64,000 nucleotides of DNA, from assembly GCA_020137815.1 (NCBI GenBank), contig CM035356.1, positions 6,882,001-6,946,000 on the forward strand, written 5' to 3'. Positions 1 through 49,383 of the stretch are shown in pieces (position 1 is the stretch's first letter; each line of letters opens with the position of its first letter). A model generated the notes under the pieces. It was not told where the DNA came from, did no database searches, and was given only the letters and a program-made list of their open reading frames with translations. A program made the position numbers and the translations under genes. The DNA is from Hormiphora californensis. Its lineage: Eukaryota > Animalia > Ctenophora.

Positions 1-43
1 GCGGTGAGAGGACCAACAGTAATCTATAACACTACCAACTCAC

Positions 44-107
44 CTTCGTCATCTGAACTGCTGTCAGAGTCAACTAACTCAGGGGGAGGGTCATCGGGAG
101 GCATCAT
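44..107 (-). CDS. Probable first coding exon of an unidentified gene running off the window, head-to-head with TSPO
   Basis: Minus strand reads MMPPDDPPPELVDSDSSSDDE followed by a consensus G|GTGAGT donor (38-43). No homology recognised. Confidence 0.4.
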
Positions 108-188
108 TGAAGCTAGTCACAGGGAAGTTGTGTTATTGTACAAGAAGATTTAGGAGATTATTATGTTGATTGGGAACGAGAGAGGGGT

Positions 189-273
<85 letters not shown>

Positions 274-419
274 AACAGAATAGGATTCTCAATAGATCAC
301 GTGACAAGGATAGTCTCCTTTCCTGGTTTGTGTCTGCTTCTACACACACTATCCTTCTTCTCTCTACATCTCTGTTGTTGTTACTGTGAGATCTATCTTT
401 TGTCTATCTTTTTTATACC

Positions 420-3416
420 ATGTATAACTGCCATGGTGGTCGTTGGTTATGGTGGGTGATATGCTTGTTCATTCCTACTCTTATCACAATTACTTTATTT
501 ACCTGGCTGGATACCAGTAAAGACACGTAAGTAGAGTGAGAGAGTGTTAGGAAGGGAGACTAAAAAAAGAGATGTTTAGAGCAAAGAGATTAATTTAAAA
601 CTAGAAAGTTTGAGTAAGGAGAGATTAGGAGATAGTTATTTTCTACGGTAGCTGAAGTGAAAGAATTAAAGTTAAAATGAGTGACCCCTAAAGCGCTTGC
701 CAGCGCCACATTTGGTGCAAGGGAGGGAAGGGACACTGCTTGCTGCTGCAACTTGTAATTTTCCAGTACTCACTCACACCCATACTACACTCATATTCTC
801 GAATACACCTGCAGATTCGTTTCCACTTGCACCTGCTGGTATTCTCATATACATCTGACCAGAGCTGAGCTATTCTCTAATACACCTGTAGCTCTTTCAT
901 CTGCACCAGCAGCTATTCTCCCTTCCACCTGCACCGCTATCCTCCCTCTCATCTCTCAGGTATGAGGATCTAATAAAACCGGAATGGTTACCCCTCAGTA
1001 TCAAGGGAGAACCCCTCGCACCAGAAATAATCATGGTCACGTGGTTTATACTCAGTTTCGCACATGGAGCTGCCGGTTAGTGAACAGATCTTTTGATAAG
1101 CAGAGCATACTGCCGGTTCGAACTTATTTTTCTCGATACAACAAATCGTGGAGCGCAATATCAAATAGAATTCCATCTCTCTCCCCTGACTCTAGGCATA
1201 TTGATCACCTATCTTTCTCACTGACCACATGTCTCTATCTAGGTATCATGATGGTCTCTCACTGACCACATGTCTCTATCTAGGTATCATGATCGTCTCT
1301 CACTGACCACATGTCTCTATCTAGGTATCATGATCGTCTCTCACTGACCACTGTGTATGTCTCTATCTAGGTATTATGATCGTCTCTCACTGACCACATG
1401 TCTCTATCTAGGTACATTATGATCGTCTATCACTGACCACTGTATGACTCTATCTAGGTATCATGATCGTCTCGAAAAACACTCCCCACGAAAATTGGAA
1501 ATGCCCAATGATGTTCGCGTTTGCAGTGTTCCTTCTAATTTTCTACTCTTGGCCGGTGTTCTATTTTGTAATAGTTCTTCCTCTAGTGGTAAGTGAACTA
1601 TTTTAGACAAACTCACACACACACAGACACATCACTGATCACACACACAAACTCACACACACGCATTTCACTGATTCTCACATCACATTGTACAACAATA
1701 ATTCCACCCATGGTCCGTTAGTCCGTAGAACAGTCAGCAGCAGTCTCTCCCCCTCCCTTGCACTAGATATCCTACATCCTCAACTACCACGCCACTACTC
1801 CCTATAGATACACCGCACTAGAACAGCCAGAATGGATCCCCGAATATTCCTTCGTACTTCTAGCCGTACTGAACACTGGAGTCAGTATCATCGAGGGGCT
1901 GGGGTTGTCAACTTTTGCCAGCAAACAGGATGTGTTTAGTGCAGCGACATGGACTCCCATATTCCTTGCCCTCACGCTCTACAAGGCTGCATTCTTCGCA
2001 TACATTCTCTCACTCCTCTATTTTGTCCAAATAATGCTAGTAAGTTTTCAGTTTCACTCATTGTAAAATTCAGGCATAAGTTTTCAGTTTCACATTGTAA
2101 AACTCACATCATAAATTCACAAGTAAGCAGCAGCAGAAGCAGTAGCGTCCCTTCCCATTCTTCGATCCTCCTCCGCTCTACCTCCCTCCCTTGAGTCGTC
2201 CATGACACTGTGTCTGGTCTACCTCTCTCCTATGGGTCTTTGACAATGGGCCTCCCATCCTTTCTCCTATGGGTTTTTGACACTGGGCCTCCCATCCTCC
2301 CTCCCATGGGTTTTGACACTGGGCCTCCCATCCTCTCTCCAGATACGATGAATACAAGAAACCCGACTGGACACCCGGTTCCTCCTACGGGGTCATAGCG
2401 GCTGGATATGTTATCACTGGAATGCTTGATGGTATTGCTATTTACGCAGGACTCCAGGTGTCCCGATATGAACTCTTCAAGAGTGTATCTACTGCAATTG
2501 TGTTCCTGTTTTTCAAAGCTTTCTACTTCATTTGGCCAGCACTCCTGTTCTACTTTGGGAACCTTATCATGGTACGGCGTACGCCTTCACACAGTAATTT
2601 ATTTTCACACACAAATCTACATAGTCACATAGCCTCATATGCTTTTCATCACAGCGCTAACAAACATACTCATCCTCATACTGAACATGCAGCAGCAAGG
2701 TGTCCTGTCCCCCTCTGGCTCTCTCCCTCTCCCTCCTTCTCTCTCTGGCTCTCTCCCCTCCTCCTTCTCTCTCCAGCTCCATCCATCTCTCCCCTCGACT
2801 CTCGATTTCCACAGTTACGAGGAATTATCCCACCCCAATTTCCTTCCCTCTGGAACCTTCTTCCCCATCTCCGGAGCGGGTCTTGTGTTCACCGGACTCT
2901 TTGAGGGAGGAGCACTTATGGTAGCCATCCACTCAACTGATTACAAGGCGGTACGGAGCAGATTGATCTTGAACATCGGGTTGAACTTCAAGATATTGAC
3001 CTACCTCTGGCCAGTATTTCTCTTCGGGTACACTCAACTCATGGTGGTAGGTATGATGAGAAATTCAAAAACAAAAGAGCCGGGAAACGGGGTTAAAAGG
3101 GGCTACTGCAGCTGCTGTACTGTTTCAATTAACATGCTCACTGTATCACACTCCTCTCACATCTTAATCACAAATCATATATTTTGTTTCTATGTACTTT
3201 TATCCATCTTTTACACTGACTAAAAAACTGATAAATATTTCTCTTTTTCAGACTTTCCTGATTGCATGCTTAGCGGCCGTCAGTGCGTTTATCGTTCTGG
3301 GATTATTTGTAAAACTCTATGATTTTGCTGGAATCCTCATGCTACCATCGTGCTTATGGTTCACTGCTCTGAGCATCTACAGTTACTATTTGTGGACCTT
3401 GAACAAGAGCGACTGA
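420..3416 (+). CDS. TSPO: Translocator protein (TspO/MBR family) with four alternative middle cassettes; isoforms of 166-172 aa
   Basis: Constant exon 1 is 420-526 (MYNCHGGRWLWWVICLFIPTLITITLFTWLDTSKD, phase-2 GTAAGT donor). Constant last exon is 3252-3416 (TFLIACL...AGILMLPSCLWFTALSIYSYYLWTLNKSD*), resembling the TSPO TM5 pattern AxxLLxPYxxWxxF...WxxN. Cassettes carry YxxLxKPxWxP-like and WPxFxF-like motifs. Spliced length matches TSPO (~170 aa, 5 TM). Confidence 0.85.
714..750 (+). promoter_or_regulatory. Candidate RNA docking site in TSPO intron 1
   Basis: GGTGCAAGGGAGGGAAGGGACACTGCTTGCTGCTGCA is reverse-complementary to segments at 907-935, 1735-1763, 2130-2193 and 2688-2705, one upstream of each cassette. 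Confidence 0.7.
960..1588 (+). CDS. TSPO: TSPO cassette A (two exons, 960-1075 and 1458-1588)
   Basis: YEDLIKPEWLPLSIKGEPLAPEIIMVTWFILSFAHGAA-G-IMIVSKNTPHENWKCPMMFAFAVFLLIFYSWPVFYFVIVLPLV. Enters phase 2, has an internal phase-1 intron, exits phase 0 at GTAAGT; 247 nt (3n+1). Confidence 0.8.
1216..1472 (+). repeat. Six tandem 41-46 bp copies of a 3' splice site plus exon start
   Basis: Unit CTCACTGACCACATGTCTCTATCTAG|GTATCATGATCGTCT; the AGs end at 1242, 1283, 1324, 1370, 1411 and 1457. Confidence 0.9.
1808..2039 (+). CDS. TSPO: TSPO cassette B
   Basis: TAG acceptor and GTAAGT donor, 232 nt (3n+1). YTALEQPEWIPEYSFVLLAVLNTGVSIIEGLGLSTFASKQDVFSAATWTPIFLALTLYKAAFFAYILSLLYFVQIML. Confidence 0.8.
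2343..2571 (+). CDS. TSPO: TSPO cassette C
   Basis: CAG acceptor and GTACGG donor, 229 nt (3n+1). YDEYKKPDWTPGSSYGVIAAGYVITGMLDGIAIYAGLQVSRYELFKSVSTAIVFLFFKAFYFIWPALLFYFGNLIM. Confidence 0.8.
2815..3046 (+). CDS. TSPO: TSPO cassette D
   Basis: CAG acceptor and GTAGGT donor, 232 nt (3n+1). YEELSHPNFLPSGTFFPISGAGLVFTGLFEGGALMVAIHSTDYKAVRSRLILNIGLNFKILTYLWPVFLFGYTQLMV. Confidence 0.8.
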
Positions 3417-3447
3417 GGACTACTGCTACTGGGGAGACGAAATACAA

Positions 3448-5082
3448 CACGGTGCACCAGAAGGATCGTCAACCCAAAGTTGAGCCCACAAAACAAACTT
3501 TTGTTGGGGGTGACCCAGGAGGCCTTCCTGAACATCCCCACGGTGAGAAAAGTATATGTTATCGGGGGAATTTTTTGTTAAAATCGAAAAAACTGGTTTT
3601 TGGTCCAAATTTGTGCATAACTTACTTGACTGCCGTTTGATGAAATATCTGATTGACATAAAATAAGTATACAAGACCTATTTTTGCACGAGGAATCGAT
3701 TGCCGGTGGAGAGAAATCTCTAAAATGACCGGAAAATTGTCAAATATGGGAATTTTGTCATTTTTTTGAGGTTTTTGGCCCTTTAACCATTGAAAACGTT
3801 GAGATAGGAAGTTGGCAATAGCGCCAATCGTTAAAATGGTCATTTTTCTACGGGATCCCAAAATTTCATGTATATCCGATTTATGGTTAGATTTTGGCAA
3901 ACTATTGAGATGTGCTTACTGAAAAAAGGATAACTTGATTTTCTCGTTTTTTGCGATTTTTTAACTTTTGACAGAATTCTGATTGAAATGGCCAATCAGG
4001 GCCATGCTAAAGTTGTTTATGGGACAATTTTCGACCAAAATCCAAGATTTCATGCAAATCCAATGACAGATCATTGGTTTATAGAAAGTTGAAATAGGCA
4101 AAAAAGGCCAATTTTTACCATGAAAATAAAAATTCACATTTTTTCTGGTCAATTTCCGTCAACAACTGGTACCCTACCTATTTTTGCACGTAGAATCGAT
4201 TGCCGGTGGAGTGGATCCTCTTAAATGATTGGAAAGCGGTCGAAATGCCATTTTTGGGCGTTTTTTTGGGCCTCCAAAAAATGGCATTTCGACCGCTTTC
4301 CAATCATTTAAGAGGATCCACTCCACCGGCAATCGATTCTACGTGCAAAAATAGGTAGGGTACCAGTTGTTGACGGAAATTGACCAGAAAAAATGTGAAT
4401 TTTTATTTTCATGGTAAAAATTGGCCTTTTTTGCCTATTTCAACTTCTATAAACCAATGATCTGTCATTGGATTTGCATGAAATCTTGGATTTTGGTCGA
4501 AAATTGTCCCATAAACAACTTTAGCATGGCCCTGATTGGCCATTTCAATCAGAATTCTGTCAAAAGTTAAAAAATCGCAAAAAACGAGAAAATCAAGTTA
4601 TCCTTTTTTCAGTAAGCACATCTCAATAGTTTGCCAAAATCTAACCATAAATCGGATATACATGAAATTTTGGGATCCCGTAGAAAAATGACCATTTTAA
4701 CGATTGGCGCTATTGCCAACTTCCTATCTCAACGTTTTCAATGGTTAAAGGGCCAAAAACCTCAAAAAATGACAAAATTCCCATATTTGACAATTTTCCG
4801 GTCATTTTAGAGATTTCTCTCCACCGGCAATCGATTCCTCGTGCAAAAATAGGTCTTGTATACTTATTTTATGTCAATCAGATATTTCATCAAACGGCAG
4901 TCAAGTAAGTTATGCACAAATTTGGACCAAAAACCAGTTTTTTCGATTTTAACAAAAAATTCCCCCGATAACATATACTTTTCTCACCGTGGGGATGTTC
5001 AGGAAGGCCTCCTGGGTCACCCCCAACAAAAGTTTGTTTTGTGGGCTCAACTTTGGGTTGACGATCCTTCTGGTGCACCGTG
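3448..5082. mobile_element. 1.6-kb foldback non-autonomous DNA transposon with Chapaev/CMC-like ends
   Basis: Two ~810-bp near-perfect inverted arms with a ~20-bp spacer near 4265. Termini CACGGTG...CACCGTG are flanked by the 4-bp direct repeat ACAA (3444-3447, 5083-5086). Confidence 0.8.
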
Positions 5083-5307
5083 ACAAAAGACTTCAGTTTT
5101 GAGTTTTATGTAACGAACAAATAACAATGAGCGATGTTTTATACTGCAACTCTCAGCTTACAAATCTGTAAATTTTATCTGTGAATTATCAAATTGGGCT
5201 TTTTTGAGAAATAAACAGGAAGAGCTACGAGGCGAGGAAAACCTTTGTTATACCCAGTCCTTTTGTTAAGTATTACAATGGTTTTCGGGTAACGACTCCA
5301 TTTTATC

Positions 5308-5449
5308 ATGAGGAGCCTCGGAAATGTTCAGGTCATGCACTTTCAGGTCACGCCCACCAATCACAGCTCAGAACGCACGGATCACAAGAGCTGTGATTGG
5401 TGTGCGTGACTTGAATGTGCATGACCTGAACATTTCCGAGGCCCCTCAT
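5308..5449. mobile_element. Short palindromic MITE-like element
   Basis: ATGAGGAGCCTCGGAAATGTTCAGGTCATGCAC...GTGCATGACCTGAACATTTCCGAGGCCCCTCAT. Confidence 0.65.
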
Positions 5450-5451
5450 CG

Positions 5452-5676
5452 TAAAGTCGGATTTTTTGAAACTGTCACCCCCCTGAAATAACAAATTTGT
5501 CATATCTCCGGTTCCTAATAAGATAGAGACTTGAAATTTGGAGGTTCGGAAGAACTTAGCAAGATCTTTATAACCTCCAAATTTCAAGTCTCTATCTCAT
5601 CAGGAACCGGACTTATGGTCATTTAAAGAAATTTGAAAACTCAGGGGGGGTGACAGTTTCAAAAAATCCGACTTTA
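5452..5676. mobile_element. MITE; second copy at 47305-47530
   Basis: TIR TAAAGTCGGATTTTTTGAAACTGTCACCCCCC at both ends; a near-identical copy lies 42 kb away. Confidence 0.8.
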
Positions 5677-6455
5677 TTCTTAAGCATTGGCGAAGCTAGG
5701 CTGTGTCCAGTGTGGTCCTGGAAGTTGGAATTGGCATACGTTGCAGGCCCCTTATAATATAATATAAGGGGCCTGGAGGGAATACCGCGCTGGGGGGGAA
5801 TACATAATCAATCATATCTCCGGTTCCAGATAAGGTACAGAAATCGTTTTGGTAGCGTTGGAAAGAGGAAGATAAGAGCTTTTAAATGCAACCGGTTTCA
5901 GGTCTCTATCTTATCAGGAACAGGAGATATGAACCAAACTCCGCAAAATCGAGTGCGGTAAAATCGAAATTTGAATGAAATTTAAAAAAAGGTGTCCCTG
6001 CAGGAATCTGTGACGTCACTTTTTGAAAACAACCCATCTTTCAACGGCTATTGCTCAGCCTCCTTAAGTCCAATTAACTTCTCTCAAAAACAGCAAGGTA
6101 GATAATCGTCAGATCTAACAACTGGTGAAAGAATCAAGTCAAACGGACTACAGGAGCCAAAGTTATAAGCACCGCCGTTTTTTCGACCGCAAAGTTATCT
6201 TCGACCCAGCCGGGCTCAGGCCAAACGCGCGCGCGGCATTCCCTTCAGTCCCCTCGTTGCGGGGGTGCGCGCATGAGGGGGCTGCAGCGCATTCCAAAAG
6301 TTGGAACACCGAACAGGACGCACTTTTCAGTTTTCGTCGCGGGAAAGGAAAAAAAAATTCTGGCGCGCGGCTTTTTTGGCAGCGTTTTAAGTGGACAAAA
6401 TTCGCGCGTTACATTTACTTAACTCCCACGCAATATTTTTCTTTGGGCCCATCAA

Positions 6456-6678
6456 AGGGATCCCTAATAAAGTTGTGACTTGTCACTGTAGTCTTGCGGA
6501 GGCGCGGTTGTGACTTGTCACCGCGTGTGCGCGTACCAAAACGCACGTGGTTCCCACTGCGCGTAGCTGCGGCGCGGCGCAAACCATGCGGTGACAAGTT
6601 ACAATCGCGCATTTTGAAGCCGCGCCGCCACGGGAACCACATGTTTGGTGACAAGTCACAACTTTATTAGGGATCCCT
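6456..6678. mobile_element. MITE with AGGGATCCCTAA ends; related element at 46781-47223
   Basis: Inverted termini AGGGATCCCTAATAAAGTTGTGACTTGTCAC...GTGACAAGTCACAACTTTATTAGGGATCCCT. Confidence 0.75.
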
Positions 6679-7055
6679 AATTCAAAATGCGACTGATTTT
6701 CTTTTCATTTTTTGGTCATTTTTTTTTTCAAAAATTTGACCACCTGAGCGGCTCAAAGCTGTCTGTTTACAGCCACGGACCCTACTTGCTCCGCCCTACA
6801 CCCTGCCAGGACTCCAATGAGCCGAGTTTGACCTCCACACCCAGCTGGTGTTCCGCCACAGACCCTGGACACATTTATGCTCCACGGCCGAGAGCCGGCA
6901 CGGGGCACCGCCCCTTTTGGAAACCCAAATATATTTTAACATATTTTCAAGCTGGTCAGAATTCATTAACCCGATTTTATTGAATTATATCCCCATTAGC
7001 ACATGACATCGTCTCCTGTAAATATGGTTTGAGATCATGAGCTCGAATTGTTGTT

Positions 7056-18068
<11,013 letters not shown>

Positions 18069-18294
18069 CCCCAGGACACTCTGTGTGCAAGACACTGATT
18101 TTCAGAGACCGGCCTCGTGAGCTGCATGAGAGGAATATGTTTGTGTAGCTTTTGTTGAAATAGAGAGTGCCGTTGTCAGGACAATACTCTGACAGGAGTT
18201 CCGTGCCAGTTCTCTCTCAGATATATCGCCAGACAGGTTCTGCACCTGTGTGAGGAGGGATGTTTTTAAAAGGGCTGCAATTTATCTTTCGAGG

Positions 18295-18339
<45 letters not shown>

Positions 18340-18657
18340 CAGAGAGAAAGAGAGAGAAAGAGAGGAAGAGAGAGAGGTATCATTATGCATTGCCACCACT
18401 TTCATTGCCATGGTAGGCTGACATCCACTGTCATACGTACCTTTTTTAAAGTCACGTGGCCACGCTGGCCTCTGCCCCTATTATAAATATCTCAAACCAC
18501 CCTGTAAAATATGTAAATATGAGCGGGCCTGGATGCCGGCCTCTAAAAATAATGCGATAGGTTTATCTCAGCTTGCAGGCTGATAGGAAATCGCATTTTA
18601 GTGACACATTTTACAGCTTGTCATCTTTTAGAAGAAAGAGAGAGAGAAAGAGGAGAG

Positions 18658-18707
<50 letters not shown>

Positions 18708-19244
18708 TAGAAGAGAGAGAAGGGGAAAGAGAGGGATAGGAAGAGGGAGAAGATAGGGATAGAGAGAGGGAGAGAGAGAGAGAGAGAGAGAGAGATGCAG
18801 AGAGAGAGAGAGAAGAGAGAGAGTAGGAAGAGAGAGAGAGAGAGAGAAGAGATAGAAGAGAGAGGAGAGTAGAAGAGAGAGAGAGATGCTGAAGATCCCA
18901 AGCTGTGTGTAGAACATTTTTGCAGAACAATGTTTTTGCAATTGGTAAAATATGATGAGAAAAAGCAATTATATAATCAAACAGATCACAATTCTTCTCA
19001 AACAATTACTCAGAACGTAAACTCTTTAAATTGATTTTTAAAAACAAAGTTTTCGTTTCTTTGTTCATTCTTTCCTAGTCAGAGATTTATCGTTTACACC
19101 AAAACTTCACGATTGACACTTTTGGACTCATTCACATTGTCTAAAGAAGCACGGTGGTTTACTGTTAACCACTAATTGACAACTAAGCATCTGTCACAAC
19201 TATTACATTATCACACAAATACATATTAAAACAGAACTGATCTC

Positions 19245-20777
19245 CTATAACTCTTCTTTAGGCTCTTCTCTCCTTGGCCTTTTCTCGGGAGCTTTCTCAC
19301 TCGGCGACAAAGTTTCTTCATTTTCTATCACAGTGTCACCCATTTGCTGACTGTCTGCTGTCACAGTGTCACCCATTCTCTGACTGTCTGCTGTGAGGCT
19401 GTCACCCATTTTCTGACTGTCTGCTGCTAGGCTATCACCCATTTTCTGACTGTCTGCGGCGAGGCTGTCACCCATTTTCTGACTGTCTGCTGCTAGGCTA
19501 TCGCCCATTTTCTGACTGAAACTAACAACCGGTTCACCACCCACCATCTCACTATAACTAAGTTTCGGAGTCTCACTTGGTATGGACATTGGCTCAACAT
19601 CATTCAAGATCTGCACCGACTGGGTAAGTTGACCCATCATCTCATTGTTCATATTGTTGTCATTTTGACCCTCACCAACACTGTCTCCCATCTCTTGAGT
19701 TTCAATTTCCTCCTCCTCCTGAGGAAGTTCCTCTTCTTCCTCATCATCCTCATCCTCCTCTAACAACCACTCCCAGACAGACTCTCGAGCAGTATGACTG
19801 GTCCAACTATGGTCAGGTGTCCCGGCTGACCTAATCCCAGGACCCATCCTGGTGTCCAATGGCTTCCCCGAACTCACCCAATTCACCACCCTCACCCCAT
19901 GACCTATCTGACCCCACTGAACACCATCAGTTAGCGCCACCCTCCGCACGACCCTCCCAAAATTAGGGAACTCCTTTGCCAGCCTCTGAACAACAACACC
20001 CCCGTAACTATGCGCCACGATCATCACACTTCCCTCGGTACACCCCTCTAGAAACTGGTTCCAAACCGTAAAGGCGTGCTCAACAGGGCTACCCGATCCA
20101 ACGAAACGACCCCCAGACTCATTCGTGTTCAACACCAGGATATCGAGATTGTTTTTCTGGGCCCAGGTTATGTAGGGGAACATAGCACCAGCATTGAGGT
20201 CATTGTTCATTATAATTGCACGTGCCCACATGCCAGCACGAACAGCCCCACTACCATTGATCAGGACCAGTTTATCGGCGGATGAAGTACTGAATCCAGG
20301 AGATGCAAACACAAATGATCGGGGTTCAATACTGTCAGGAGGTGGGTCAGAATTGTCAGGGTGCTTTGGTGATTCAGAATTGTCAGGGAGTGGTTCAGCA
20401 TTGTCAGGGGGTGGTTCGGCATTGTCAGGCTGGCTCGGTGGCGGTGGTTCAGTCTCTGTTACAAGTGTTTCAGTTCCAGTTTCAGTTTCTACCGGTGCTG
20501 CTGATGGTAACGGTGGAACTGAAATCCGTTCCAGCCCGTAATCCTCCTCTAACACCGTATAAACATGTTGCGTAACGGCATCCCCAATCCGCTCATACCG
20601 AGCCTGGTTCTCATACCGCGTTTTGAGGACATTAAACTCGAACTTGTTGTCATGGTCATCCAGGAATTCGCCCTCCGCGGTAAACCGGTACTCGGTGTTT
20701 TCAACTTTTCGTGCTACAGCCATGCTTGATAGGGATAGAAGGGGAAGTGAGAGGAGTAGGAGGGACCGTATTGCCAT
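19245..20777 (-). CDS. FAM172A: FAM172A/Arb2-domain protein, intronless, 510 aa
   Basis: Motifs RYERIG, LINGSGAVRAGMWARAIIMN, SPVEHAFTVW, VAHSYGG, VALTD, NWVSS, SAGTxxH. Hydrophobic N-terminus and C-terminal KEEL; 11-aa SQKMGDSLAAD repeats near 19340-19520. Confidence 0.9.
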   Translation of the reverse strand: MAIRSLLLLSLPLLSLSSMAVARKVENTEYRFTAEGEFLDDHDNKFEFNVLKTRYENQARYERIGDAVTQHVYTVLEEDYGLERISVPPLPSAAPVETETGTETLVTETEPPPPSQPDNAEPPPDNAEPLPDNSESPKHPDNSDPPPDSIEPRSFVFASPGFSTSSADKLVLINGSGAVRAGMWARAIIMNNDLNAGAMFPYITWAQKNNLDILVLNTNESGGRFVGSGSPVEHAFTVWNQFLEGCTEGSVMIVAHSYGGVVVQRLAKEFPNFGRVVRRVALTDGVQWGQIGHGVRVVNWVSSGKPLDTRMGPGIRSAGTPDHSWTSHTARESVWEWLLEEDEDDEEEEELPQEEEEIETQEMGDSVGEGQNDNNMNNEMMGQLTQSVQILNDVEPMSIPSETPKLSYSEMVGGEPVVSFSQKMGDSLAADSQKMGDSLAADSQKMGDSLAADSQKMGDSLTADSQRMGDTVTADSQQMGDTVIENEETLSPSEKAPEKRPRREEPKEEL

Positions 20778-20811
20778 GCTTTTAAGAAATTGTTATTCAG
20801 TCAACGGGTAG

Positions 20812-20953
20812 AAATGATAGGGTGTAGGGGGAATTGATAGGGTGTAGGGGAAATGATAGGGTGTAGGGGAAATGATAAGGTGTAGGGGGAAATAATAGGG
20901 TGTAGGGGGAAATGATAGGGTGTAGGGGGAAATAATAGGGTCGATAGGGTGTA
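20812..20953. repeat. ~20-21 bp minisatellite
   Basis: AAATGATAGGGTGTAGGGG repeated about six times. Confidence 0.85.
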
Positions 20954-21860
20954 GAAGGAGGGGGGGGGGGTTATTGGAGAGAAACTGGAAGGGCCGTGGT
21001 CGGGTGGAAACTAAACTGTTTAGATTTTCAGAAGTGTCTGGGATTACGTTCGTAAAGACGGTTTCTATAAATTCTATGGGGATGGACTTTCTCATCTGAT
21101 CTGAAATGATGTTCATTGCACTGTCACTATCATCACCATTTCTTTCAATAACTTCAATCCTGCGTAATTGACCACAATATATGGAAAGGCTTACACCTCT
21201 GTATAATATATGCACATCAGGTAGTGCTTCTGTGGTCCAAAATAGACGCACATTACAAGGGGGCTGCACCAGGTTCATCTGTGGCAGAGAGAGAGGTGCA
21301 AGAGAGATAGAGGGGGAAGATTGTTATTGATAAGGAGGTGGGGTGCAGTGCATAATAGCTCTCTAGGGGAATAGACAGACGGGAGGGGAGGGTATAGGTC
21401 ATATCCGGGTCGTGAGGGGCTTGCATTCTCGCTAAATCTGCGGCCTGCCAACACCTGCAGTAATCAAAGCGCTTGCTCTCTCTCTATCATTTGATCGGGG
21501 GTCCCTTTATTTTTAGTTACCCGTCTGTACCTCTCGCTTGGCATTTCGAAGCTAAGCACATAACTGCATATTGAACAGAAGTTTTTCAACAAGTAGGTAA
21601 GTCATTTAATTCCTTTTTCAAAGGAAAGTCATTCCTTTCAATCATCCTTTGGGCAGTCCCTTGTTTCTACTAAGATGAACAGCTACTACAGCTCTAGTCG
21701 AGTCAACACCTAACTTAGCTGGAAATGTTTCAAAGACTTTGCTGTCTGCTGATTAGATCCTTTATCCAATATATTCCAGTAGTGATTGCACTTGACTGTT
21801 GACATTTGTATACAGCACATCCCCGCTCACCTTTGTTTCCCCCCTCTTTTCAGCCCGATA

Positions 21861-24800
21861 ATGTACGGGGCAAATAATGTCAGTATCGACATAAACAACG
21901 CCGCTGGTGCCGCTCGGAACAGAGCCTACTCTGGAGCCAGCAACTCTTCCTTCATCTCTAACTTCAGTTCCAACGCTGGGGGAGCCGCCGCTAACTCCTA
22001 CGCCAATGTAGCTGGGGCCGGTGCCAACTTTGGAGCTGGAGCCCAGAATGCATACAACGCTGGAGCCGGTGCCGCTCAGGGTGCCTACAACGCTGGAGCT
22101 GGAGCCGCTCGTGTTTCCATCAACACCATGGGCGCTGGAGCTCAACCATACGTGAACGTAGCTGGAGCCGGAGCTCAACCATACATGAATGTTGCTGGAG
22201 CCGGAGTCCAGCCATTTGCCGCTGGTGGTGTTCAGCCATACGGTGCCGGAGTCCAGAGTATCAACATCCAGGGAGCCGGAACTCAGCCATACGTTAACAT
22301 GGGAGGAGCTGGAGGTGCAATGCCCATCAGCGTTTCTGTCAACGGAGCTGGAGTCCAGCAGCCAAATGTGACCGTGATCGATGGTGGAGTCCCCTACAAC
22401 GTTACCCCTCAGGTTATCTCTGTGGTGGCGGCTGGTGCCCCCGCTGGAGGTTACCCTGCTGCTGGAGGTTACCCTGCTGGAGGTGCCCCCGCTGGAGGTG
22501 CCCCTGCTGGTGGTGCTCCTGCTGGTGGTGCTCCTGCTGGTGGTGCTCCTGCTGGAGGTTCTCCTCCCTACTATCACCACCATTGCCACGGAGGATACCC
22601 TGCTGGTGCTCCTGGCGGTGCTGGTGCTCCTGGTGCTGATGGTGCCCCTGGTGCTCCAGGCGGTGCTGGGCAACCTGGTGGTGCTGGACAACCCGGTGGC
22701 GCTGGACAACCCGGTGGAGCCGGACAACCCGGTGCTCCTGGCGGTGCCGGTTCTCCCGGTGGCGCTGGAGGCCCCGGTGGAAATGGAGGAAATGGTGGTC
22801 CAGGAGGAAACGGAGGACCTGGAGCTGGACCCGGAGGTTATCCTTATGGAGGTCCCGGAGGCCCAGGTGGAAACGGTGGTCCCGGAGGAAATGGAGGCCC
22901 AGGCGGAAACGGAGGTCCAGGCGGACCTGCCTACAGTCCTAACAGTTGTCCTATGGGAAACAATGGATGTCCTTTGGGTGGACCTGGAGGTCCTGGTGGC
23001 CCAGGAGGAAACGGTGGCCCTGGAGGACCCGGAGGTCCAGGTGGCCCAGGAGGTCCATTTGGACCCGGTGGTGCTCCCCTCGGACCTGGAGGTAATCCTC
23101 TAGGACCCGGTGGGCGAAGTCCTAATGGAGGTCCCGGAGGTCCTGGTGGCCCAGGAGGAAACGGTGGCCCAGGAGGTCCCGGAGGTCCAGGTGGCCCAGG
23201 AGGTCCATTTGGACCCGGTGGTGCTCCCCTTGGACCCGGTGGAAATCCTCTAGGACCCGGTGGACGAAGTCCTAATGGAGGTCCCGGAGGTCCTGGTGGC
23301 CCAGGAGGAAACGGTGGTCCCGGAGGTCCAGGTGGCCCAGGAGGTCCATATGGACCCGGTGGTGCTCCCCTTGGACCCGATGGAAATCCTCTTGGACCAG
23401 GTGGACGAAGTCCTAATGGAGGTCCCGGAGGTCCTGGTGGACCCGGCGGAAACGGTGGCCCAGGAGGTCCAGGAGGACCTGGAGGTCCATTTGGACCCGG
23501 TGGTGCTCCCCTCGGACCTGATGGTAATCCTCTTGGACCAGGTGGACCAAATCCTAATGGTGGACCTGATCCCAGATACCCTGGAGGAAACCCTCAGAAT
23601 CCCAATGGAGGTGGTCCAGGTGGTCCTGGAGGTCCCGGTGGCCCAGGAGGTCCAGGTGGCCCGGGAGGTCCCGGTGGAAACCCCAGAGGACCCGGCGGAA
23701 ACCCAAGAGGACCCGGCGGAAACCCAAGAGGTCCTGGAGGAAACCCTAGAGGTCCTGGAGGAAACCCCCGAAACCCCAACGGGGGCGGTCCAGGTGGTCC
23801 TGGAGGTCCCGGTGGCCCAGGAGGTCCAGGTGGCCCAGGAGGTCCCGGTGGAAACCCCAGAGGTCCCGGTGGAAACCCCAGAGGTCCCGGAGGAAACCCT
23901 CAGAATCCCAACGGAGGAAACCCTCAGAATCCCAACGGAGGAAACCCTCAGAATCCCAACGGAGGAAACCCTCAGAATCCCAACGGAGGAAACCCTCAGA
24001 ATCCCAACGGAGGCGGCCCAGGTGGACCCGGTGGCCCAGGAGGTCCCGGTGGTCCTGGAGGTCCCGGTGGTCCTGGACCTATTACTCCCAACAACCAGCG
24101 CCCACTCGGTGCTGGACCCGGAGGCCCAGGAGGTCCAGGAGGTCCCGGTGGCCCAGGAGGTCCCGGTGGCCCAGGAGGACCCGGTGGCCCTGACCCCCAC
24201 AACGGTCCTAGGCCTTGTCCCGGATACTCTATCGTCAAAGTTCCATGCTGTCAATGTGGAAAGCCTACAGGACCCGGAGGTCCAGGTGGTCCAGGAGGCC
24301 CAGGAGGTCCCGGTGGACCTGGAGGTCCCGGAGGCCCGGGAGGAAAGGGTGGTCCCAAAGACCCCAAAAATCCTAATGGAGGTCCCGGAGGAAAGGGAGG
24401 TCCCGGAGGTAAGGGAGGTCCCGGCGGACCTGGTGGCCCCGGAGGCAAGGGTGGCCCCAAAAATCCCAAAAATCCTAATGGAGGTCCCGGAGGAAAGGGA
24501 GGCCCAGGAGGTAAGGGAGGTCCCGGAGGTAAGGGAGGTCCCGGAGGCCCTGGCGGTCCCGGTGGACCTGACGACGATTCCTCTGTCCCTAGCTCTAGTG
24601 GAAGCTCTGGCCCCAGTTCTGGAGATGGACCTGACTCCGACGGAGATTCCGGCTGCTGCAACTGCTGTGGTCCTTCTAAGCCTGCTGATAAACCCAAAAA
24701 GGGAGGAAAGAAGCCCAAGAAGCCCAAAAAGGGAGGAAAGAAACCCGGAGACAGTAGTGATGATGATGATACCGATGACGGTCTGTCCTCCATTCTTGCT

Positions 24801-27800
24801 TCTTCTGCCCCCACTAGTGGCGATGGACCTAGCAGTGGCCCTAGCTCTGGAGCAGGAAAGAAACCTAAGACCAAGGGAGGAAAGAAGCCTAAAAATGGTG
24901 GAGACAGCGACCCCGATGACAGTGACGATGGTCCCGATTCTGGCGATGATGATTCCGACGGCGGTGGCTGTTGTGGACCTAAAAAGCCCAAAAAGGGAGG
25001 AAAGAAGCCTAAGGGTGGTGATGATGACAGTGACCCCGACAGTGATGATGGACCCTCATCTGGTAATGGACCCTCATCTGGTGATGGGCCCGATTCTGAT
25101 GGAGATTCCTCCGACGGCGGTGGCTGTTGTGGACCTAAAAAGCCCAAAAAGAAGAAGCCTACTGATGGAGGCCCAGGAGGCAAAGGAGGTCCCGGAGGCA
25201 AGGGTGGTCCTGGAGGCAAGGGTGGCCCAGGAGGCAAGGGAGGCCCAGGAGGTCCCGGTGGCCCCGGAGGAAAGGGTGGTCCCGGAGGCAAGGGTGGTCC
25301 CGGAGGCAAGCCCGACCCTAGGTGCCCCAACTGTGGAGAAAAAAAGCCAAAGAACGGTGATGCAGAAGATCCATATGGTCCAGGTGGTCGGTACGATCCT
25401 AACGATCCTGACAGGCCATACAATCCTTATGACCCTGAGGATCCTAACAATCCCTTCAGACCCGGTGGTATCTTGGACCCTGAGGGCCCCAACAGGCCTT
25501 ACAATCCCTGGGACCCCAACGATATTTGGAACCCATACAAGCCTGGTGGTCCGCTAGATCCCAATGACCCCAACGCACCATTTGACCCAGCTGACCCCAA
25601 CGATCCTCTCAACCCATTCAGGCCCGGAGGTCCCCTGGACCCTAACAGCCCGGACCGACCATACGATCCTTATGGTGATCATCCCATGAACCCATACAGA
25701 CCGGGCGGCCCTCTGGATCCCAACGATCCCTAACTGCCCCTACGATCCCAAGGACTTGAACCATCCCATGAATCCCTACAGGCCCGGTGGACCTCTTGAT
25801 CCAAGTGACCCCAACAGGCCCTACGATCCTTATGATCCTGACGATCCCAGGAATCCCTTCCGTCCAGGAGGCCCCTTGGACCCCAACGATCCCAACAAAC
25901 CTTACGATCCATTTGACAACAACGACCCCAACAACCCCTTCAGGCCAGGCGGTCCCCTGGATCCTAATGACCCCAACAAACCATATGATCCCCATGATCT
26001 GACCGATCCCAGGAATCCATTCCGCCCCGGTGGTGCTTTGGATCCCATGAGCCCCAACAGGCCCTACGATCCCTTCGATAACAACGATCCAAGGAATCCA
26101 TTCAGGCCAGGTGGCCCACTTGACCCCAATGATCCTGACATTCCCTACGATCCTCACGATTTGGATGATCCCAGAAATCCATTCCGCCCCGGAGGTCCCC
26201 TAGATCCCATGAGCCCTAACAGGCCCTACAACCCCTTCGATAACACCGACCCGAGGAACCCCTTCCGACCTGGCGGTCCTCTTGACCCCAACAACCCAGA
26301 CATTCCCTACGACCCCAGGGATATGAGCGATCCCCGAAATCCTTTCAGGCCCGGTGGCCCATTGGATCCCAACAGTCCTCTACGAAACTACAACCCCAAC
26401 GACATGAATGATCCTAACAATCCCTTCCGCCCCGGTGGTCCTCTTGACCCTAACCGAGGCAAGAAGCCCAAGGATGACAAGCCTAAGGACCCTAGCGACG
26501 GAGGCAAGAAGCCTAAAGACCCTACCGACGGAGGCAAGAAGCCTAAAGCTGGTGGCAAGAAGCCTAAGAAGAGCGATCCTGATACCGACTCCAGTGGTAC
26601 AAGTGGTCCATCCAGTGGCAGCGGACCATCCAGTGGTAGCAGCGGCCCATCATCCAGTGGCGGCTCCAGTGGCCCATCTAGCACCAGCGGAGACAGTGAT
26701 GCCGGATGTTGTGGACCCAAGAAGCCTAAGGATGACGGAAAGAAGCCCAAGGATGACGGAAAGAAGCCTAAGGATGGTGGCAAAAAGCCTAAGGATGGCA
26801 AGAAACCCAAGAAGGGAGCCCCAGATGATGATGATAGCGACGGTGATAGTGACGGATCTTGCGGCTGCTGTGGACCTGAGAAGAAGCCAAAGGGCAAGAA
26901 ACCAGGAAAGTGCAAGTACTGCAAGAAACCACTCCGACCTGATGATGATCCTTTCGGTCCCAGTCCCTATGGACCTGGAAGTAGTCCCTACGGACCAAGC
27001 CCATATGGACCAGGAGGTCCCGGTGGCCCAGGAGGTCCTGGTGGCCCAGGAGGACCTGGAGGCCTCGGAGGATGTCCTTACAACCCATGGGGTCCTGGAG
27101 GTCCAGGAGGTCCCGGTGGCCCAGGAGGTCCTGGTGGCCCTGGAGGCCTCGGAGGATGTCCTTACAACCCATGGGGTCCTGGAGGTCCAGGTGGCCCAGG
27201 AGGTCCCGGTGGACCTGGCGGTCCCGGAGGTAATGGAGGTCCCGGTGGATGTCCCTTCGCCCCAAGAAGCCCAAACGGAAACAATCCCAACGGAAACAAT
27301 CCCAACGGCAACAACCCCAACGGTAATAACCCCAACGGTAATAACCCCAACGGTAATAACCCCAACGGTGGGCCCGGAGGTCCCGGTGGACCTGGAGGCC
27401 CAGGTGGTCCTGGAGGTCCAGGTGGTAATGGAGGCCCTGGCGGAGACCCCAACAACCCCAACGGAAACAATCCCAACGGCAACAACCCCAACGGTAACAA
27501 CCCCAACGGGAACAACCCCAACGGTGGGCCCGGAGGTCCCGGTGGACCTGGAGGCCCAGGTGGTCCTGGAGGTCCAGGAGGCAATGGAGGACCTGGCGGA
27601 GACCCCAATAACCCCAACGGTAACAACCCCAACGGTAACAACCCATGGGGACCCGGTGGACCCGGAGGTAACGGTGGACCAGGAGGTCCTGGAGGCCCCG
27701 GGGGAGTCGGAGGTCCCGGAGGAGTTAACCCCACTGGCTGTATGCCCTGGGGACCCGGAGCAAACGGCGGACCTGGAGGTAACGGTGGTCCCGGAGGACC

Positions 27801-28095
27801 AGGAGGTCCCGGTGGTAACGGCGGTCCCGGTGGATACGGCGGATGCCCCAACGCTGGATGTCCCTATGGTGGAGGTCCCGGTGGTCCTGGAGGAGCTGGA
27901 GGTCCTGGTGGACCTGGAGGTCCCGGAGGTGCTGGAGGATGTCCCTACTACCAACCAGCATACTGCCCAGGAGGGGGATCTGTTGCCTCAGGCGGAGGTG
28001 CCAGTAGCACCACTGGATACTACGTTGGATACCGTATGGTGCCATATTACTACAGCTACAGCTATCCTACTGGACGGTACAGCTACAGATACTAA
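21861..28095 (+). CDS. Giant Gly/Pro-rich repetitive structural protein (~2,077 aa), single coding exon, one +1 frameshift near 25730
   Basis: ORFs 21786-25733 and 25756-28095 join if one C is removed from GATCCCTAAC, restoring DPNDPNCPYDP. ATG 21861 follows a CAG acceptor (21853), with a candidate UTR donor AG|GTAAGT at 21597. Synonymous variation among repeats indicates selection at the protein level. Confidence 0.85.
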
Positions 28096-28234
28096 ATGCC
28101 AACCATTAAATAACTATTTACTTCATCAAAATTTTCATCTCTGTGTATAATAATTTGCATATATTTCAATTTGCAAAAGATGTGTTTCAATTTGTCAAAT
28201 TTGTCAAAACGTTAAAAAAAACTGCAATTCTTCG

Positions 28235-28706
28235 TTATCTGGCAATGACCCGTGCTACTTTTCTAAATTCCTTTGTCTTTGATTCCGGGCAGAGCATCTC
28301 ACACCAGCTAACGGGAATCATTCCAATGCCTGATGCGCTACTCTTCGCAAATACAACACCTACGAAATATAGTGTTGTCAGGATTCGAAAACCAAGTTTT
28401 TTCTAGGGAATGTGGCGGAAATAATTCCAAAACTATAAAGGGAATGTGAGAAAAACTTTCGGGTATCAAAGTAAGGGTAATTGCATCTTGTTACCTAGTT
28501 CGTTTTCAGCAGTTGATAGGAAGTAGGAGGATGTGTCACCGATTGAGATGACCCTTGCCAGAACCAAATCACCTGGTCTGTAACATTTGTATACCACCAC
28601 CGAGTCTTTCTCTTTTGCTCGAATATCCTCCTTTTTAACTACACCTGTGGGGTAGTAAGAAGGGGTGAGAGAGAGAGAGAGAGAGGGAGAGAGGGAGAGA
28701 GGGAGA

Positions 28707-32100: not shown

Positions 32101-35100
32101 AACTGGCTCCATGGGGATCACGTATCGGTTCGTTTCGAACCGTCTAATTAGCGACAGGACGTGCGAGGTACCCGCCCTCCCTGCCGACGAACCTCCCTGC
32201 CGACGGGTCGGCAGGGAGGTCATTCGGCAGGGAGGGCGGGATATAGGGGTATAATGTCCTACGTGCCGACGAGATTGGGATGAGATCGCCGTCGGCACGT
32301 AGGACATTTGACCCCTATATTCCGCCCTCCCTGCCGAAAACTGACTCCGAGAAAGTATTCGGCAGGGAGGACATTTACCCCTCATATTCACCCTCTGTAC
32401 CGACGATCGGCAGGGAGGATATTTCACCCCTCCTTTTACCCTCTGTACCGACGATCGGTAGGGAGGGCGTTTCACTCCTTCTGTGAGCTCGAGAATTTGG
32501 CCGGCAGGCCAAATACGAAGAGTTCACTGTGTATTGTTCCTCTGAGTATCGTTAGGGTTAGGGTTAGGGTTAGGGTTAGGGTTAGGGTTAGGGTTAGGGT
32601 TAGGGTTAGGGCGGTGGTTAGGGTTAGGGTGGTGGTTAGGGCGGTGGTTAGGGTGATGATTAGGGCGATGGTTTGGGTTATGGTTTCGTTGGCACAGAGG
32701 GTGAAAAGGAGGGGTAAATGTCCTCCCTGCCGATCGTCGGTAGTGAGGCTGAAAAGGAGGGGTAAATGTCCTCCCTGCCGACGGCCCTACTTGCCGATCG
32801 TCGGTACAGAGGGTAAAAGGAGGGGTAAAATGTCCTCCCTGCCGATCGTCGGTACAGAGGGTAAAAGGAGGGGTAAAATGTCCTCCCTGCCGACCGTCGG
32901 CACAGAGGGTAAAAGGAGGGGTAAAATGTCCTCCCTGCCGACGGCCCTCCCTGCCGATCGGTAGGGAGGTCCGTCGGCAGGGAGGGCAGAAAATAGGGGT
33001 ATAATGTCCTACGTGCCGACGGCGATCTCATCCCAATTTCGTCGGCACGTAGGACATTATACCCCCATATCCCGCCCTCCCTGCCGACGGACCTCCCTGC
33101 CGACGGGTCGGCAGGGAGGTCCGTCGGCAGGGAGGGGGTGACTCGACGTGCGATAAGATGCACTGATTCGAAACACGATTCGGACGTAGTTGATATACCT
33201 TTGAAAAATTTTCGTAACTTTTTTTTTACAAAATTTTACAGAATGATTGGCAATGCTTTGATCGGTGCTCCCCATGAATTTTCAGAGAAAAAGATACATA
33301 TTTTGAAATTCAAATTCTTCTTCACCCCGCTTAAAGTGCCCCGATTCGGTATGGTAACACGTATCGGTTCGTTTCGAACCGTCTAATTAGCAGCAAGACA
33401 TGCGATAAGATGCGCTGATTCGATAAACGATTCGGACGTGGTTGATATGTTCGCAAAAGGCAAGCTTCCCCTCGTCCGACCCGAAGTTGGAATCATATGG
33501 GTTTAGTTTGTCGAACCGGCAAGTTGCTAACATTTTCAAATCTTCACTACTTCTCAAATGATCCCATACTTTCAGTCTAATCCCAAAATCCTATTAAAAA
33601 TAGAGACAAAAATAACGGCACCAAACTGTGAAATGCCCTTGCATTAGTGCGAGTAGAATAAAATCAATTTTCTATCTAAAGGCCGAGTTTATAGCAAGAA
33701 AGGACTATTTTACAACGAATTCTCTGGTTAGTATGGTAACCAACTCCGTTGTCATGGTAAATCAATCGAACTCTATCGAGTTCTATCGCCAGCAACTGGA
33801 TGAAAATTTATCCATTTCATTATGCACAATGCACAGGCTTTGGTTACGAAGTTACCCCTTGCCAGCGTGTGCACGCGAAGGTCGCCCGGCGACAGAGTGT
33901 GAGGTGTCTTCGATACCAAGCACAGGCTTGTGTAACAAAAAGGGGCGTTTTTATAGCTTATTGTTCATCATAACCTGAAATAAATAATTTTCATTACTTT
34001 CACAAAGGCTCAAAGTTTGAATATCAAATTTGCCAAAATTGTGCAGGGGCCACCCCAAAATTAATCTCTAAGTAATTAATTAATTAATTTTGACTATTCC
34101 CACTTTCTGTAGATTATATTATATGTTTTATGCATGAAGAACATTCCTAGAAAGTTTCAAGTCGATATTTTAAGCAGAACGGAAAATATAATTTAGTGCA
34201 TGGGCAAACAAAATGGTGCAAGGGCACATGTTCAGGGGAAATTTGCACAAATTGTGCAAGGGCAAATTTTGATTAATTTGCCTATAATTAATTACCTAAT
34301 TGATATATTAATCATACGGCTCTTCTAGTACTCGTAGTTATGCTACTAGAACATGCATAGAAAGTTTCGTGTCAAAATATTAAACGGTGTGGACACAGTT
34401 CGATCATAAAGTTGGTGCAAGGGCTGCCCTTGCACCATTTGCCCTTGCACATTGCCTGCCCTTGCACCAAATTCCATTTTTTGCACGGCTCTAACTAACT
34501 AATTAATTAATTTTGACTATTCCCACTTTTCGAACATCATCTTTTATGATTGAAGAACATTACTACAAAGTTTCAAGTCGATATTTTAAGCAGAACGGAA
34601 AATAGAATTTGGTGCAAGGGCGCGGTGCAAGGGACAGAACACGCAATGTGCAAGGGCACGGTGCCCTTGCACCATTTTTAATTACCTATAATTAATTAAT
34701 TAATTAAAAATTCAAAAATCCGCCAACGTCATGACACAAAGGAATACTACAAGAACATGCCTACAAAATTTCAAGTCGATATCTCAAACGGTGTGGCCAC
34801 AATCGTTGACATGTTTTTTGCCCCCCCCCCCCCCAAAAAAAAGACCTTTCTTTGTTCTTAATAGGGCCGGCATTTTTGGGTTTTTGTGCAAGGGCAAAAA
34901 TTTTTTTTTTCTTTTTTTCGTTTTTTGCTGTTTTCTTCGGGTCGGAGGTGCCTGCCGGCACCTAAATAGTACCTTAGAAATTTTTTAAATTTTTTGAAAT
35001 TTTTGAAAATTATTTTCTTTTTCTTATCAGAAATGATCATGTAATCAATACATGGACATTGTATTTAACACTTAGAGGTGTTTAAGTATAGTATTTTAGA

Positions 35101-47891: not shown

Positions 47892-48420
47892 AGTATACTC
47901 TTTTGGCAGCGCGCACCTGTAAACAGGCTGCAAGGCACCCAGATTATAATCGCGCCCTAGGCCAACAGCCCCCTCATGCGCGGGCCTGCAACGTATGCCA
48001 AATGATTTAAAAAACTTTCAAAATGTCTCCAAAACTCCAAAGACTATTTGTAAAGGGAGAGAGCGCTCCCATAACTTGAAGAGCGCTGTCTTATCCTGCC
48101 CTGGTCCATGTCCGTAACGAATCTTGAGAGATTTTATTGAAGAAACCGTCTTTGGACTGCGTCGAAATTCGACGGTCGAATAATGCACGTCGGAGCACGT
48201 TCTTCGGGCACGAGAAAGAGTGAGTGAGAGAGCTTTCTACTTTTCTAATTTTATAAACCTTTAAAACAACTAAAATAACAGGTGAAAAGCTAGACAATTT
48301 TTGGTTTGGTTTTACACAGTTTATTCCAATCATCAAACTTTTCAACACTACTTTAAACAAATTAATTTGAGTTTCAGCAACATGGCGATGTAACGGCCCC
48401 AAAGGGCAGAACGTAAGATA

Positions 48421-49383
48421 ATGGCAGACGAACAACGAGAATTGGACTTTGCTGTAAGACGGATTCTGACGCTGGCCAAAAGTGGAGAGAGCTCTGTCGC
48501 TGGCAATGTCTTAAAAAAGTGCAGGAGCAGTCCAGATTTCAACGATGCTGAAATACCGTCATCAGTTAAAATCAACTCTGTACACACGAAATATGAGCTA
48601 AAGCAACTGATTGAAGAAATGAGCTTTGCAACGTTTATTGTTCTAAAACACTTTGAGCGTCATATCTTTGCCGAGAAATCCCCTGAGATGGTACTCAAAG
48701 AGGAGCGAGATGAACTCAAAGAGGAGCGAGATGAACTGTTGAGAAAATCCCTCGAGTTGCAGGAGCAGGAGGAGAAGTTGAAAGTGGAGTGTGATGATCT
48801 TTTGAGAAGAACTGTCAAGTTACAAGAGCAGGTTATTGAGCTTCAGGGCGAGCAACTGAATCGAGTTACCGAGACGGTACAGAAAGATTTGCGTACTTTC
48901 TCCGCAGTCGTCACACAGAATTGTAAGACTGCGTTTGCATCGAAAAAGATCCAGAAAGCCGTGGAAAAGGTCACGCACAAGCCAGTTGATACCGGCCCAG
49001 ACAGATCGAAAAATCTGATGGTGTTTGGTCTACCGGAATGTGAGGATGAAACTGAATCTGTGTTAAAGGGTGAAGTGGAAAATGTTTTTGCTGAGCTAGG
49101 CGAGAAACCGACCATAGAAGCTAGAAGGGTGGGTTTGAAACGGGGAGGAAGGGAGAGACCAGTGATTGTGAAGCTACAGAGTAGGGAAATGCTGCTGAGC
49201 CTTCTCCAGAAGGCAAAGCAGCTAAAACAGTTAGAATCGTACTGCGGTGTATATCTTGCAAGGGATATGTCCTTCGCAGAGAGAAGTGAGAGGAGAGAAC
49301 TCCACCAAACGTTGAAGGAGTTGAGGGACTCGAATCCTGGAGGCCAATTCCGGGTACGGAGGGGGGTGATAGACTTTTCATAA
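48421..49383 (+). mobile_element. LINE (CR1-type) ORF1 protein, 320 aa, with no ORF2 downstream
   Basis: Coiled coil followed by the RRM-like RSKNLMVFGLPE...RRVG...RPVIVKL and VYLARDMSFAERSERREL, typical of CR1/L2 ORF1p. Confidence 0.8.

Follow-up and report, generated by a model that had tools for sequence, protein, structure and literature searches.

Hormiphora californensis appears to encode a lineage-restricted, apparently undescribed block protein that may assemble into an elastic material inside the cell. Its gene occupies positions 21861..28095 (+) of the window, by which we mean the whole 64,000-nucleotide (nt) stretch analysed here (assembly GCA_020137815.1, contig CM035356.1, positions 6,882,001 to 6,946,000 of the forward strand), and its product is 2,077 amino acids (aa) long. 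We give roughly even odds (about 0.5) to the reading that this product forms a cytoplasmic, disordered elastic fibre or mesh, cross-linked through cysteine and tyrosine and through charge-paired blocks. Every block listed in an initial annotation of the bare sequence is present, in the order given there.

The full-length protein emerges once a single extra base is set aside. The coding span measures 6,235 nt, which is not divisible by 3, and the window reads as two frames, 21861-25733 (1,290 aa) and 25690-28095 (801 aa): a TAA at 25731-25733 closes the first after 1,290 aa and the remainder lies in another frame. Repeat copy 4 of the core is 82 nt long, against 81 nt in ten other copies. The base at 25728/25731 is missing from one contig each of run X1 (depth 22.2/22.2), run X5 (622.4/622.4), RNA run X8 (6.16/6.16) and run X22 (153.4/153.4). 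These four runs, from four studies, are all that cover the site; the other four of the eight compared have zero depth there. Because every covering run lacks it, the extra base is likely an assembly error, with a private allele as the alternative. Read through with X at this point, coding is otherwise uninterrupted in frame. With the runs taken into account, the ~2,080-aa protein first proposed reads 2,077 aa; in the window itself it is split into 1,290 and 801 aa. It is very improbable that the window allele is truly frameshifted (pseudogenised, or truncated at 1,290 aa) or that the locus is untranslated: the stop does stand in the window, X1 differs from the window by 13 letters in 1,485 there and so may be another haplotype, and the compared runs are public ones, none identified as reads of the assembled individual, yet none of the covering runs has the base, it sits at a C run, and variation is silent-biased on both sides of it. 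This frameshift and the break-up of contigs over the repeats suggest that annotation can easily miss the gene.

Substitution patterns indicate that the 2,077-aa frame is under purifying selection. Two read comparisons listed 40 of 218 and 40 of 741 differences, and among those listed the coding ones were silent in 27 of 30 and 14 of 14 cases (39 of 42 combined, two sites being common to both lists), although some may come from mis-placed repeats or paralogues. Comparison of ten full 81-nt repeat copies gave proportions of synonymous (pS) and nonsynonymous (pN) differences of 0.78 and 0.21, with a pN of 0.076 across the first eleven codons. Long overlapping open reading frames (ORFs) in other frames were rejected as repeat shadows; 40 of 44 listed differences fall at third positions of the main frame.

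The gene is likely expressed. RNA coverage extends over 24 of 30 bins in run X7 and 25 in X8 and is zero in 21000-21987 and 28163-28400; X1 and X5 cover all 30, flanks included. RNA contigs that lie over the coding part and not over the flanks fit transcription, and oligo-dT runs X10 and X11 contribute further near-identical pieces. The RNA runs with cover are marine metatranscriptomes, and contig depth gives no ranking of expression. Of eleven listed marine or aquatic runs with shares under 0.2, nine were left out of the comparison. RNA pieces of two studies stop at 28097 and 28101 while DNA runs go on, a weak hint that a nearby ATTAAA is the polyadenylation signal.

Sequence comparison also indicates conservation of the gene, both in a second organism, B, and in X22, a divergent run with 648 nt of the core at ~82% identity. 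Organism B contigs span 21382-22432, where 115 letters differ and 51 are gaps, as well as 26390-26793 and parts of both arms; cover is absent or near zero over 24726-25032 and 25340-26260 (80% likeness), gaps in which divergence, fragmentation and absence are not distinguishable. At least one paralogous (GGP)n gene is likely to lie elsewhere in the genome, since at joints and loose ends of contigs in X1, X5, X18 and X22, read by eye, GGP runs lead into DDPRR, PKKPKDDPRR or GPYCPLC. In such contigs GGP-joined DDPR is followed by R, N or K, and GGP never leads into these motifs in the 2,077-aa gene. No paralogue was found within the window. Separately, at 22784-22882 a 99-nt back-jump and a 9-nt gap appear in X1, X5 and X7, reflecting either a repeat-length polymorphism or a duplication collapsed in the window's GGN/GGP block.

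The chain is built from low-complexity blocks around a central repeat. Overall it holds 32.6% Gly, 21.7% Pro, 9.0% Asn, 6.7% Asp, 1.2% Gln and 0.2% Glu, with 33 Cys (1.6%), 63 Tyr and a net charge of +4. Its Gly/Pro arms have a period of three, that of Gly-Gly-Pro triplets: Pro autocorrelation reaches 2.2 at lag 3, compared with 0.39 and 0.90 at lag 5. The core, 17% of the chain, does contain the 14 repeat copies first counted, but the unit is 27 aa rather than ~25. Thirteen copies begin NP[FY][RK]PGG and one degenerate copy stands ahead of them; copy 3 has 26 aa and the last is shortened. All ten full copies compared share N1, P2, P5, G6, G7, L9, D10, P11, P14, P20, D22 and D25.

Blocks on either side of the core follow a similar order outward. 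Composition read outward from the core gave a dynamic time warping (DTW) distance of 0.165 mirrored vs 0.202 direct, and shuffles of 60-aa chunks gave 0.203 +/- 0.011, none of 500 as low as the mirrored value, in a test whose centre and letters were picked after viewing the sequence and whose three coarse blocks per arm would fall in order by chance 1 time in 6. Motif polarity stays N-to-C on both sides (CCGP 5, PGCC 0). The mirror symmetry of the initial annotation therefore survives as an order of coarse block composition (0.165 against 0.203) but not at the level of motifs, which are not reversed. The most plausible reading of the block plan is a single module, duplicated so as to flank the core.

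Features of the block-protein gene, in window coordinates
Feature	Position	Strand	Remark
Non-coding exon, predicted; no ATG, in-frame stop	21518..21596	+	splice signals; organism B contig from 21382
5'-UTR (untranslated region) intron, predicted	21597..21853	+	AG/GTAAGT donor at 21597; pyrimidine tract CAG, 7 nt before ATG
Coding sequence, 2,077 aa read through with X	21861..28095	+	one extra base inside
Ala/Gly/Asn/Val/Tyr N-terminal block with AGAGA and QPY, aa 1-195	21861..22445	+	no hydrophobic leader
GGAPA repeats, HHHCH, 25 unbroken Gly-X-Y triplets (aa 249-323; GAP, GQP, GGN)	22446..22829	+	
N-arm, (GGP)n/GGN with GGNPR and GGNPQNPN sub-repeats, to aa 780; 2P+G 1.04	22761..24200	+	
Cys linker (CPGY...CCQC) and GGK/GGP block	24201..24566	+	
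Three modules of Asp/Ser block, CCGP and KKPK block (aa 903-1102)	24567..25166	+	
Second GGK block and CPNC motif	25167..25367	+	
Core, 14 copies of the 27-aa unit, aa 1170-1530, net charge -32	25368..26451	+	
Extra base, frame-shifting	25728..25731	+	likely assembly error; absent in 4/4 covering runs
C-side KKPK, Asp/Ser and CCGP blocks (net +17) and CKYC motif	26452..26937	+	
C-arm, (GGP)n with GNNPN repeats, five GCP[YF] motifs; 2P+G 0.96	26938..27969	+	
Tyr-rich tail (11 Tyr/41 aa) and stop	27970..28095	+	
ATTAAA, candidate polyadenylation signal	28105..28110	+	sequence

A cross-linked elastic polymer is suggested by the arms' Pro/Gly level, the pairing of repeats with cross-link motifs and the behaviour of GGX/GPG motifs. 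The composition value 2P+G is 0.76 for the whole protein and 0.96-1.08 in the arms, above the elastomer threshold of 0.60 (PMC7061623), which bears out the elastomer-type composition claimed initially. In elastomers, disordered repeats and cross-linking motifs go together (PMC4321713); here disordered repeat blocks alternate with Cys/Tyr motifs that may serve as cross-links. In Flag silk, GGX/GPG motifs can form reversible polyglycine II crystallites (PMC3808813).

Each block type would have its own part in the material. The (Gly-Gly-Pro)n arms, either disordered and hydrated or in transient polyglycine/polyproline-II packing, would recoil entropically. Electrostatic pairing of the alternating Lys and Asp/Ser blocks of different chains would bring those chains into register as they assemble. 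The cysteines of the CCGP, CxxC and GCP[YF] motifs would lock the network together. In a reducing cytosol the likeliest means would be Zn or S-acylation to membrane, for which di-Cys beside a polybasic stretch offers a possible context; disulfides in a terminally differentiated cell would be the alternative. The Tyr-rich ends could be end-to-end stickers or dityrosine sites, and the acidic 27-aa core a semi-ordered spacer or a cation-binding segment of Asx-Pro turns. Since no leader is seen, assembly would take place in the cytoplasm.

We infer a cytoplasmic location from the lack of any visible leader, as the initial annotation had also seen no signal peptide. At the ATG, the best 9-residue hydropathy in the first 40 aa is 0.61. 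The upstream signal-peptide exon that was to be checked for is missing from the gap of ~1 kb (20800-21790) before the head-to-head FAM172A homologue, where none of six distinct donor-like sites gives an ATG and a hydrophobic stretch in a scan by hydropathy and splice-site reading within the window; mechanical candidates occur only farther upstream, as detailed below. The stretch 21382-21596 holds no ATG. A pyrimidine-rich AG precedes the 5' edge of the predicted non-coding exon, which may thus be internal or trans-spliced.

Homology searches support the initial view of a lineage-specific structural protein. Pfam found 0 families in both halves of the protein (Amelogenin, on sub-blocks, reached E 0.2, below the cut-off), and the databases searched held no full-length homologue. 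A phmmer search with the 240-aa core against 1.84 billion representatives gave 230 matches at E<=0.001; among the 150 listed, 148 have a best 18-residue match of <=11, the exceptions being P0004 and P0041, and the others that were read are compositional Pro/Asp/Asn-rich proteins, for example mucin-binding repeats. The 17 matches of a word search with the core among 132-420-aa proteins all belong to one bacterial family. The N-terminal 200 aa had no match among 30-708-aa proteins, a collection that includes Pleurobrachia bachei gene models (longer proteins were not searched), and in JGI metagenomes the N-terminus met one locus, a 31-aa match in an unrelated frame. The ESM Atlas returned no usable match with the core. 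In these searches the repeat and the N-terminus matched no characterised family, and among the matches listed the core unit is shared with a Melainabacteria family alone.

Structure prediction gave no confident fold or folded domain. AlphaFold reached a predicted local distance difference test (pLDDT) score of 60.8 and a predicted template modelling (pTM) score of 0.38 with a 26-row alignment, and 51.5 and 0.17 without alignment; the models contain almost no helix or strand, and Foldseek against PDB found no match at E<=0.001. Sequence matches of the Gly-X-Y stretch to collagen-like PDB chains look weak and compositional: 8zxl_X has a whole-sequence E of 1e-28 with single stretches at just 0.005-0.01, and 9wxp_DB has an E of 0.0016. 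A further match, 9d2f_a, was set aside as Pro periodicity only. A neuropeptide precursor was likewise rejected: there is no leader, and RP-G is followed by Gly where a basic cleavage site would be expected after the motif.

The core unit recurs, nearly unchanged, in an unnamed Melainabacteria family (P0004, P0041, P0182, P0192-P0206; loci L002-L012) whose genomes are mostly of rumen origin. Its members are ~400 aa long, with a Tyr/Pro-rich N-terminus, 4-9 repeat copies, in most cases a Cys cluster ahead of them, and a HEAT-like C-terminal domain. P0004 shares 16 of the unit's first 18 residues, P0205 and P0193 share 15 each and P0041 shares 14; shuffles of three members reach <=11, with 0 of 2,000 each at the observed level. 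Unlike the 2,077-aa protein, these bacterial proteins lack GGP arms and charge blocks; conversely, the HEAT-like domain was not found in the 2,077-aa protein, and similarity is limited to the repeat unit. Habitat, and the fact that nothing else is shared, make convergence on a small Asx-Pro/aromatic motif somewhat more likely than transfer.

Several observations weigh against a cytoplasmic elastomer. Well-studied elastomers of such composition are secreted, and the GGP prolines sit in X-Pro-Gly, a prolyl 4-hydroxylase context that suits an exported collagen-like chain. Beyond FAM172A, the stretch 1-19200 holds 128 donor-like sites, and mechanically a hydrophobic leader could come from 3 of them. 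The 5' splice joint is seen in no run and RNA contigs stop short of the 5' exon; moreover, RNA libraries may contain DNA, and depths are low. Cnidoin has a signal peptide (PMC4321713), and colloblast candidates of Mnemiopsis are not enriched for low-complexity regions (PMC6278862). Another, though unlikely, reading is a secreted protein of collagen-like or silk-like kind, serving as colloblast glue or as matrix of the mesoglea or tentacle: it would be exported by a distant signal exon or by cell rupture, with GGP prolines hydroxylated, Cys disulfide-linked and Tyr converted to 3,4-dihydroxyphenylalanine (DOPA) or dityrosine. The chain contains 216 Gly-X-Y triplets in 22 runs, one of which extends unbroken for 25, but the others hold <=16 and are mostly Gly-Gly-X, and Gly-Gly-X destabilises triple helices. 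Similarly, the two collagen-like PDB matches and the cysteine content would suit a matrix protein, whereas Pfam gave no Collagen or NC1 match and neither the ATG nor the 1-kb stretch before FAM172A shows a leader. Colloblast glue is freed by apical membrane rupture, yet colloblast candidates are enriched for signal peptides (PMC6278862). Since a glue has to leave the cell and no leader was seen, the adhesive role that the initial annotation had entertained is disfavoured.

Two further alternatives were weighed. The protein could be a cornified-envelope-like or membrane-skeleton lining of a terminally differentiated cell, stiff rather than elastic and heavily cross-linked through Cys, Lys and Tyr in the manner of loricrin/SEDC proteins, which we consider quite unlikely. 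Cys next to a polybasic stretch resembles acylation-plus-polybasic membrane anchors and counts in favour of such a lining. So do a predicted gene plan that, like that of SEDC genes, places a non-coding exon with a G-GTAAG donor ahead of one coding exon, and a Gly/Pro/Cys/Ser/Lys bias of the SEDC kind, although SEDC genes are given as amniote-specific (PMC4245816). Transglutaminase acceptors, however, are scarce because Gln is only 1.2%, and the cysteines, at 1.6%, are clustered, with arms of 340-480 aa sparsely linked. Improbable, too, is a role as a condensate former or as a disordered scaffold for signalling or trafficking, with EH domains and AP-2 docking on the NPF and DPF motifs. NPF is an EH-domain ligand and the chain has 11 NPF and 3 DPF motifs, but NPY can stand in place of NPF and the adjoining PGGxLDP is just as constant. 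The near-identical unit occurs in bacteria, which are not known to have EH-domain endocytosis, and the core is a small part of the chain. EH-ligand adaptors of the epsin or stonin type are matched in NPF but not in a folded adaptor domain: Pfam found no ENTH, SH3 or other one.

As the cell type that uses a cytoplasmic elastomer, tentacle or colloblast is our leading guess. The extensible basal apparatus of the colloblast is known as the spiral filament. Colloblasts are described as having such an apparatus (PMC6278862), and their adhesive as unknown (10.1101/2020.06.27.175059). In a speculative and rather unlikely extension, the protein and its paralogues would be the material of this apparatus: an intracellular, membrane-anchored spring, independent of silk, elastin, resilin and Cnidoin, assembled by charge blocks and metal-Cys outside the secretory pathway around a 27-residue unit otherwise found in Melainabacteria alone. 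No description of a ctenophore protein of such design was found in the literature searched, mostly without subscription journals. If cytoplasmic, the protein would be an unusual non-secreted elastomer whose simple (GGP)n design is of biomaterial interest, and the gene offers a concrete probe for the elastic structures of an early-branching animal, both their location and their construction; until it is placed in a cell or tissue, the protein counts as one more lineage-specific low-complexity protein.

The neighbourhood of the gene holds unrelated features. The FAM172A/ARB2A homologue (Arb2/FAM172A) is a single ORF at 19245-20792 (-) with 77% and 75% identity to two Pleurobrachia bachei proteins and <=50% to its other 27 matches, which by itself points to a Pleurobrachia-type cydippid ctenophore as the likely host; its acidic tail carries an 11-aa repeat (33-bp array, 19334-19518). 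Intronless GPCRs (G-protein-coupled receptors) with LDL-receptor class A repeats are common in ctenophores, and 49568-53059 (-) is an uninterrupted 1,163-aa ORF with such repeats and a rhodopsin-type seven-transmembrane domain. A LINE element contributes a 912-aa endonuclease and reverse transcriptase ORF at 43410-46148 (-), and a 329-aa coiled-coil ORF at 48394-49383 (+), LINE ORF1-like by eye, lies on the strand opposite to it. The region 32250-33150, an interstitial (TTAGGG)n tract (32551-32685) between ~48-bp opposite-orientation repeats rich in TCCCTGCCGA, resembles a foldback or MITE-like element. Open stretches at 41626-42492 (+) and 2317-3223 (+) have hydrophobic, membrane-like segments and no Pfam match, and are probably exons of other genes.

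The protein resembles several known structural systems in part. In Flag spidroin, as here, GGX/GPG motifs dominate without polyalanine and non-Gly spacers occur (PMC3808813). The 2,077-aa protein differs in its (GGP)n triplets and its Cys and charge blocks, and neither spidroin N- and C-terminal domains nor a signal peptide were found (Pfam 0 families; no leader). The Flag pentamer is GPGGX; of 156 GPGG occurrences here, Pro comes next in 98 and A, S, Y or V in 10, so the flagelliform comparison first drawn is fair for GGX/GPG motifs but not for pentapeptides. Cnidoin and minicollagens, also non-bilaterian, similarly join Gly/Pro-rich elastic or short Gly-X-Y segments to Cys cross-link motifs, but have a signal peptide, a propeptide, terminal cysteine-rich domains (CRDs) and a GXGQQ repeat, none of them present here (PMC4321713). 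In the 2,077-aa protein the cysteines are internal and the chain is ~5 times longer. Minicollagens are recognised by six-Cys CRD spacing, and this protein showed neither such a domain nor the signal peptide and trimerisation/NC1 domain of collagens. Loricrin/SEDC genes share the predicted plan of a non-coding and a single coding exon and the Gly/Ser/Pro/Cys/Lys low-complexity blocks, but occupy an amniote locus between S100A genes and encode Gln-rich terminal motifs that are absent here (PMC4245816). No sequence homology to them was found, and the neighbour here is FAM172A. Mussel byssal preCol-P and preCol-NG are likewise arranged as symmetric blocks, in which elastic flanks surround a central domain and the ends cross-link through metal or Tyr; these precollagens are secreted with a long triple-helical core, and here the core is a non-collagen, acidic 27-aa repeat. 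On the features compared, the 2,077-aa protein likely stands outside the spidroins, collagens and minicollagens, Cnidoin and SEDC proteins, and likely works like a member of the elastomer class.

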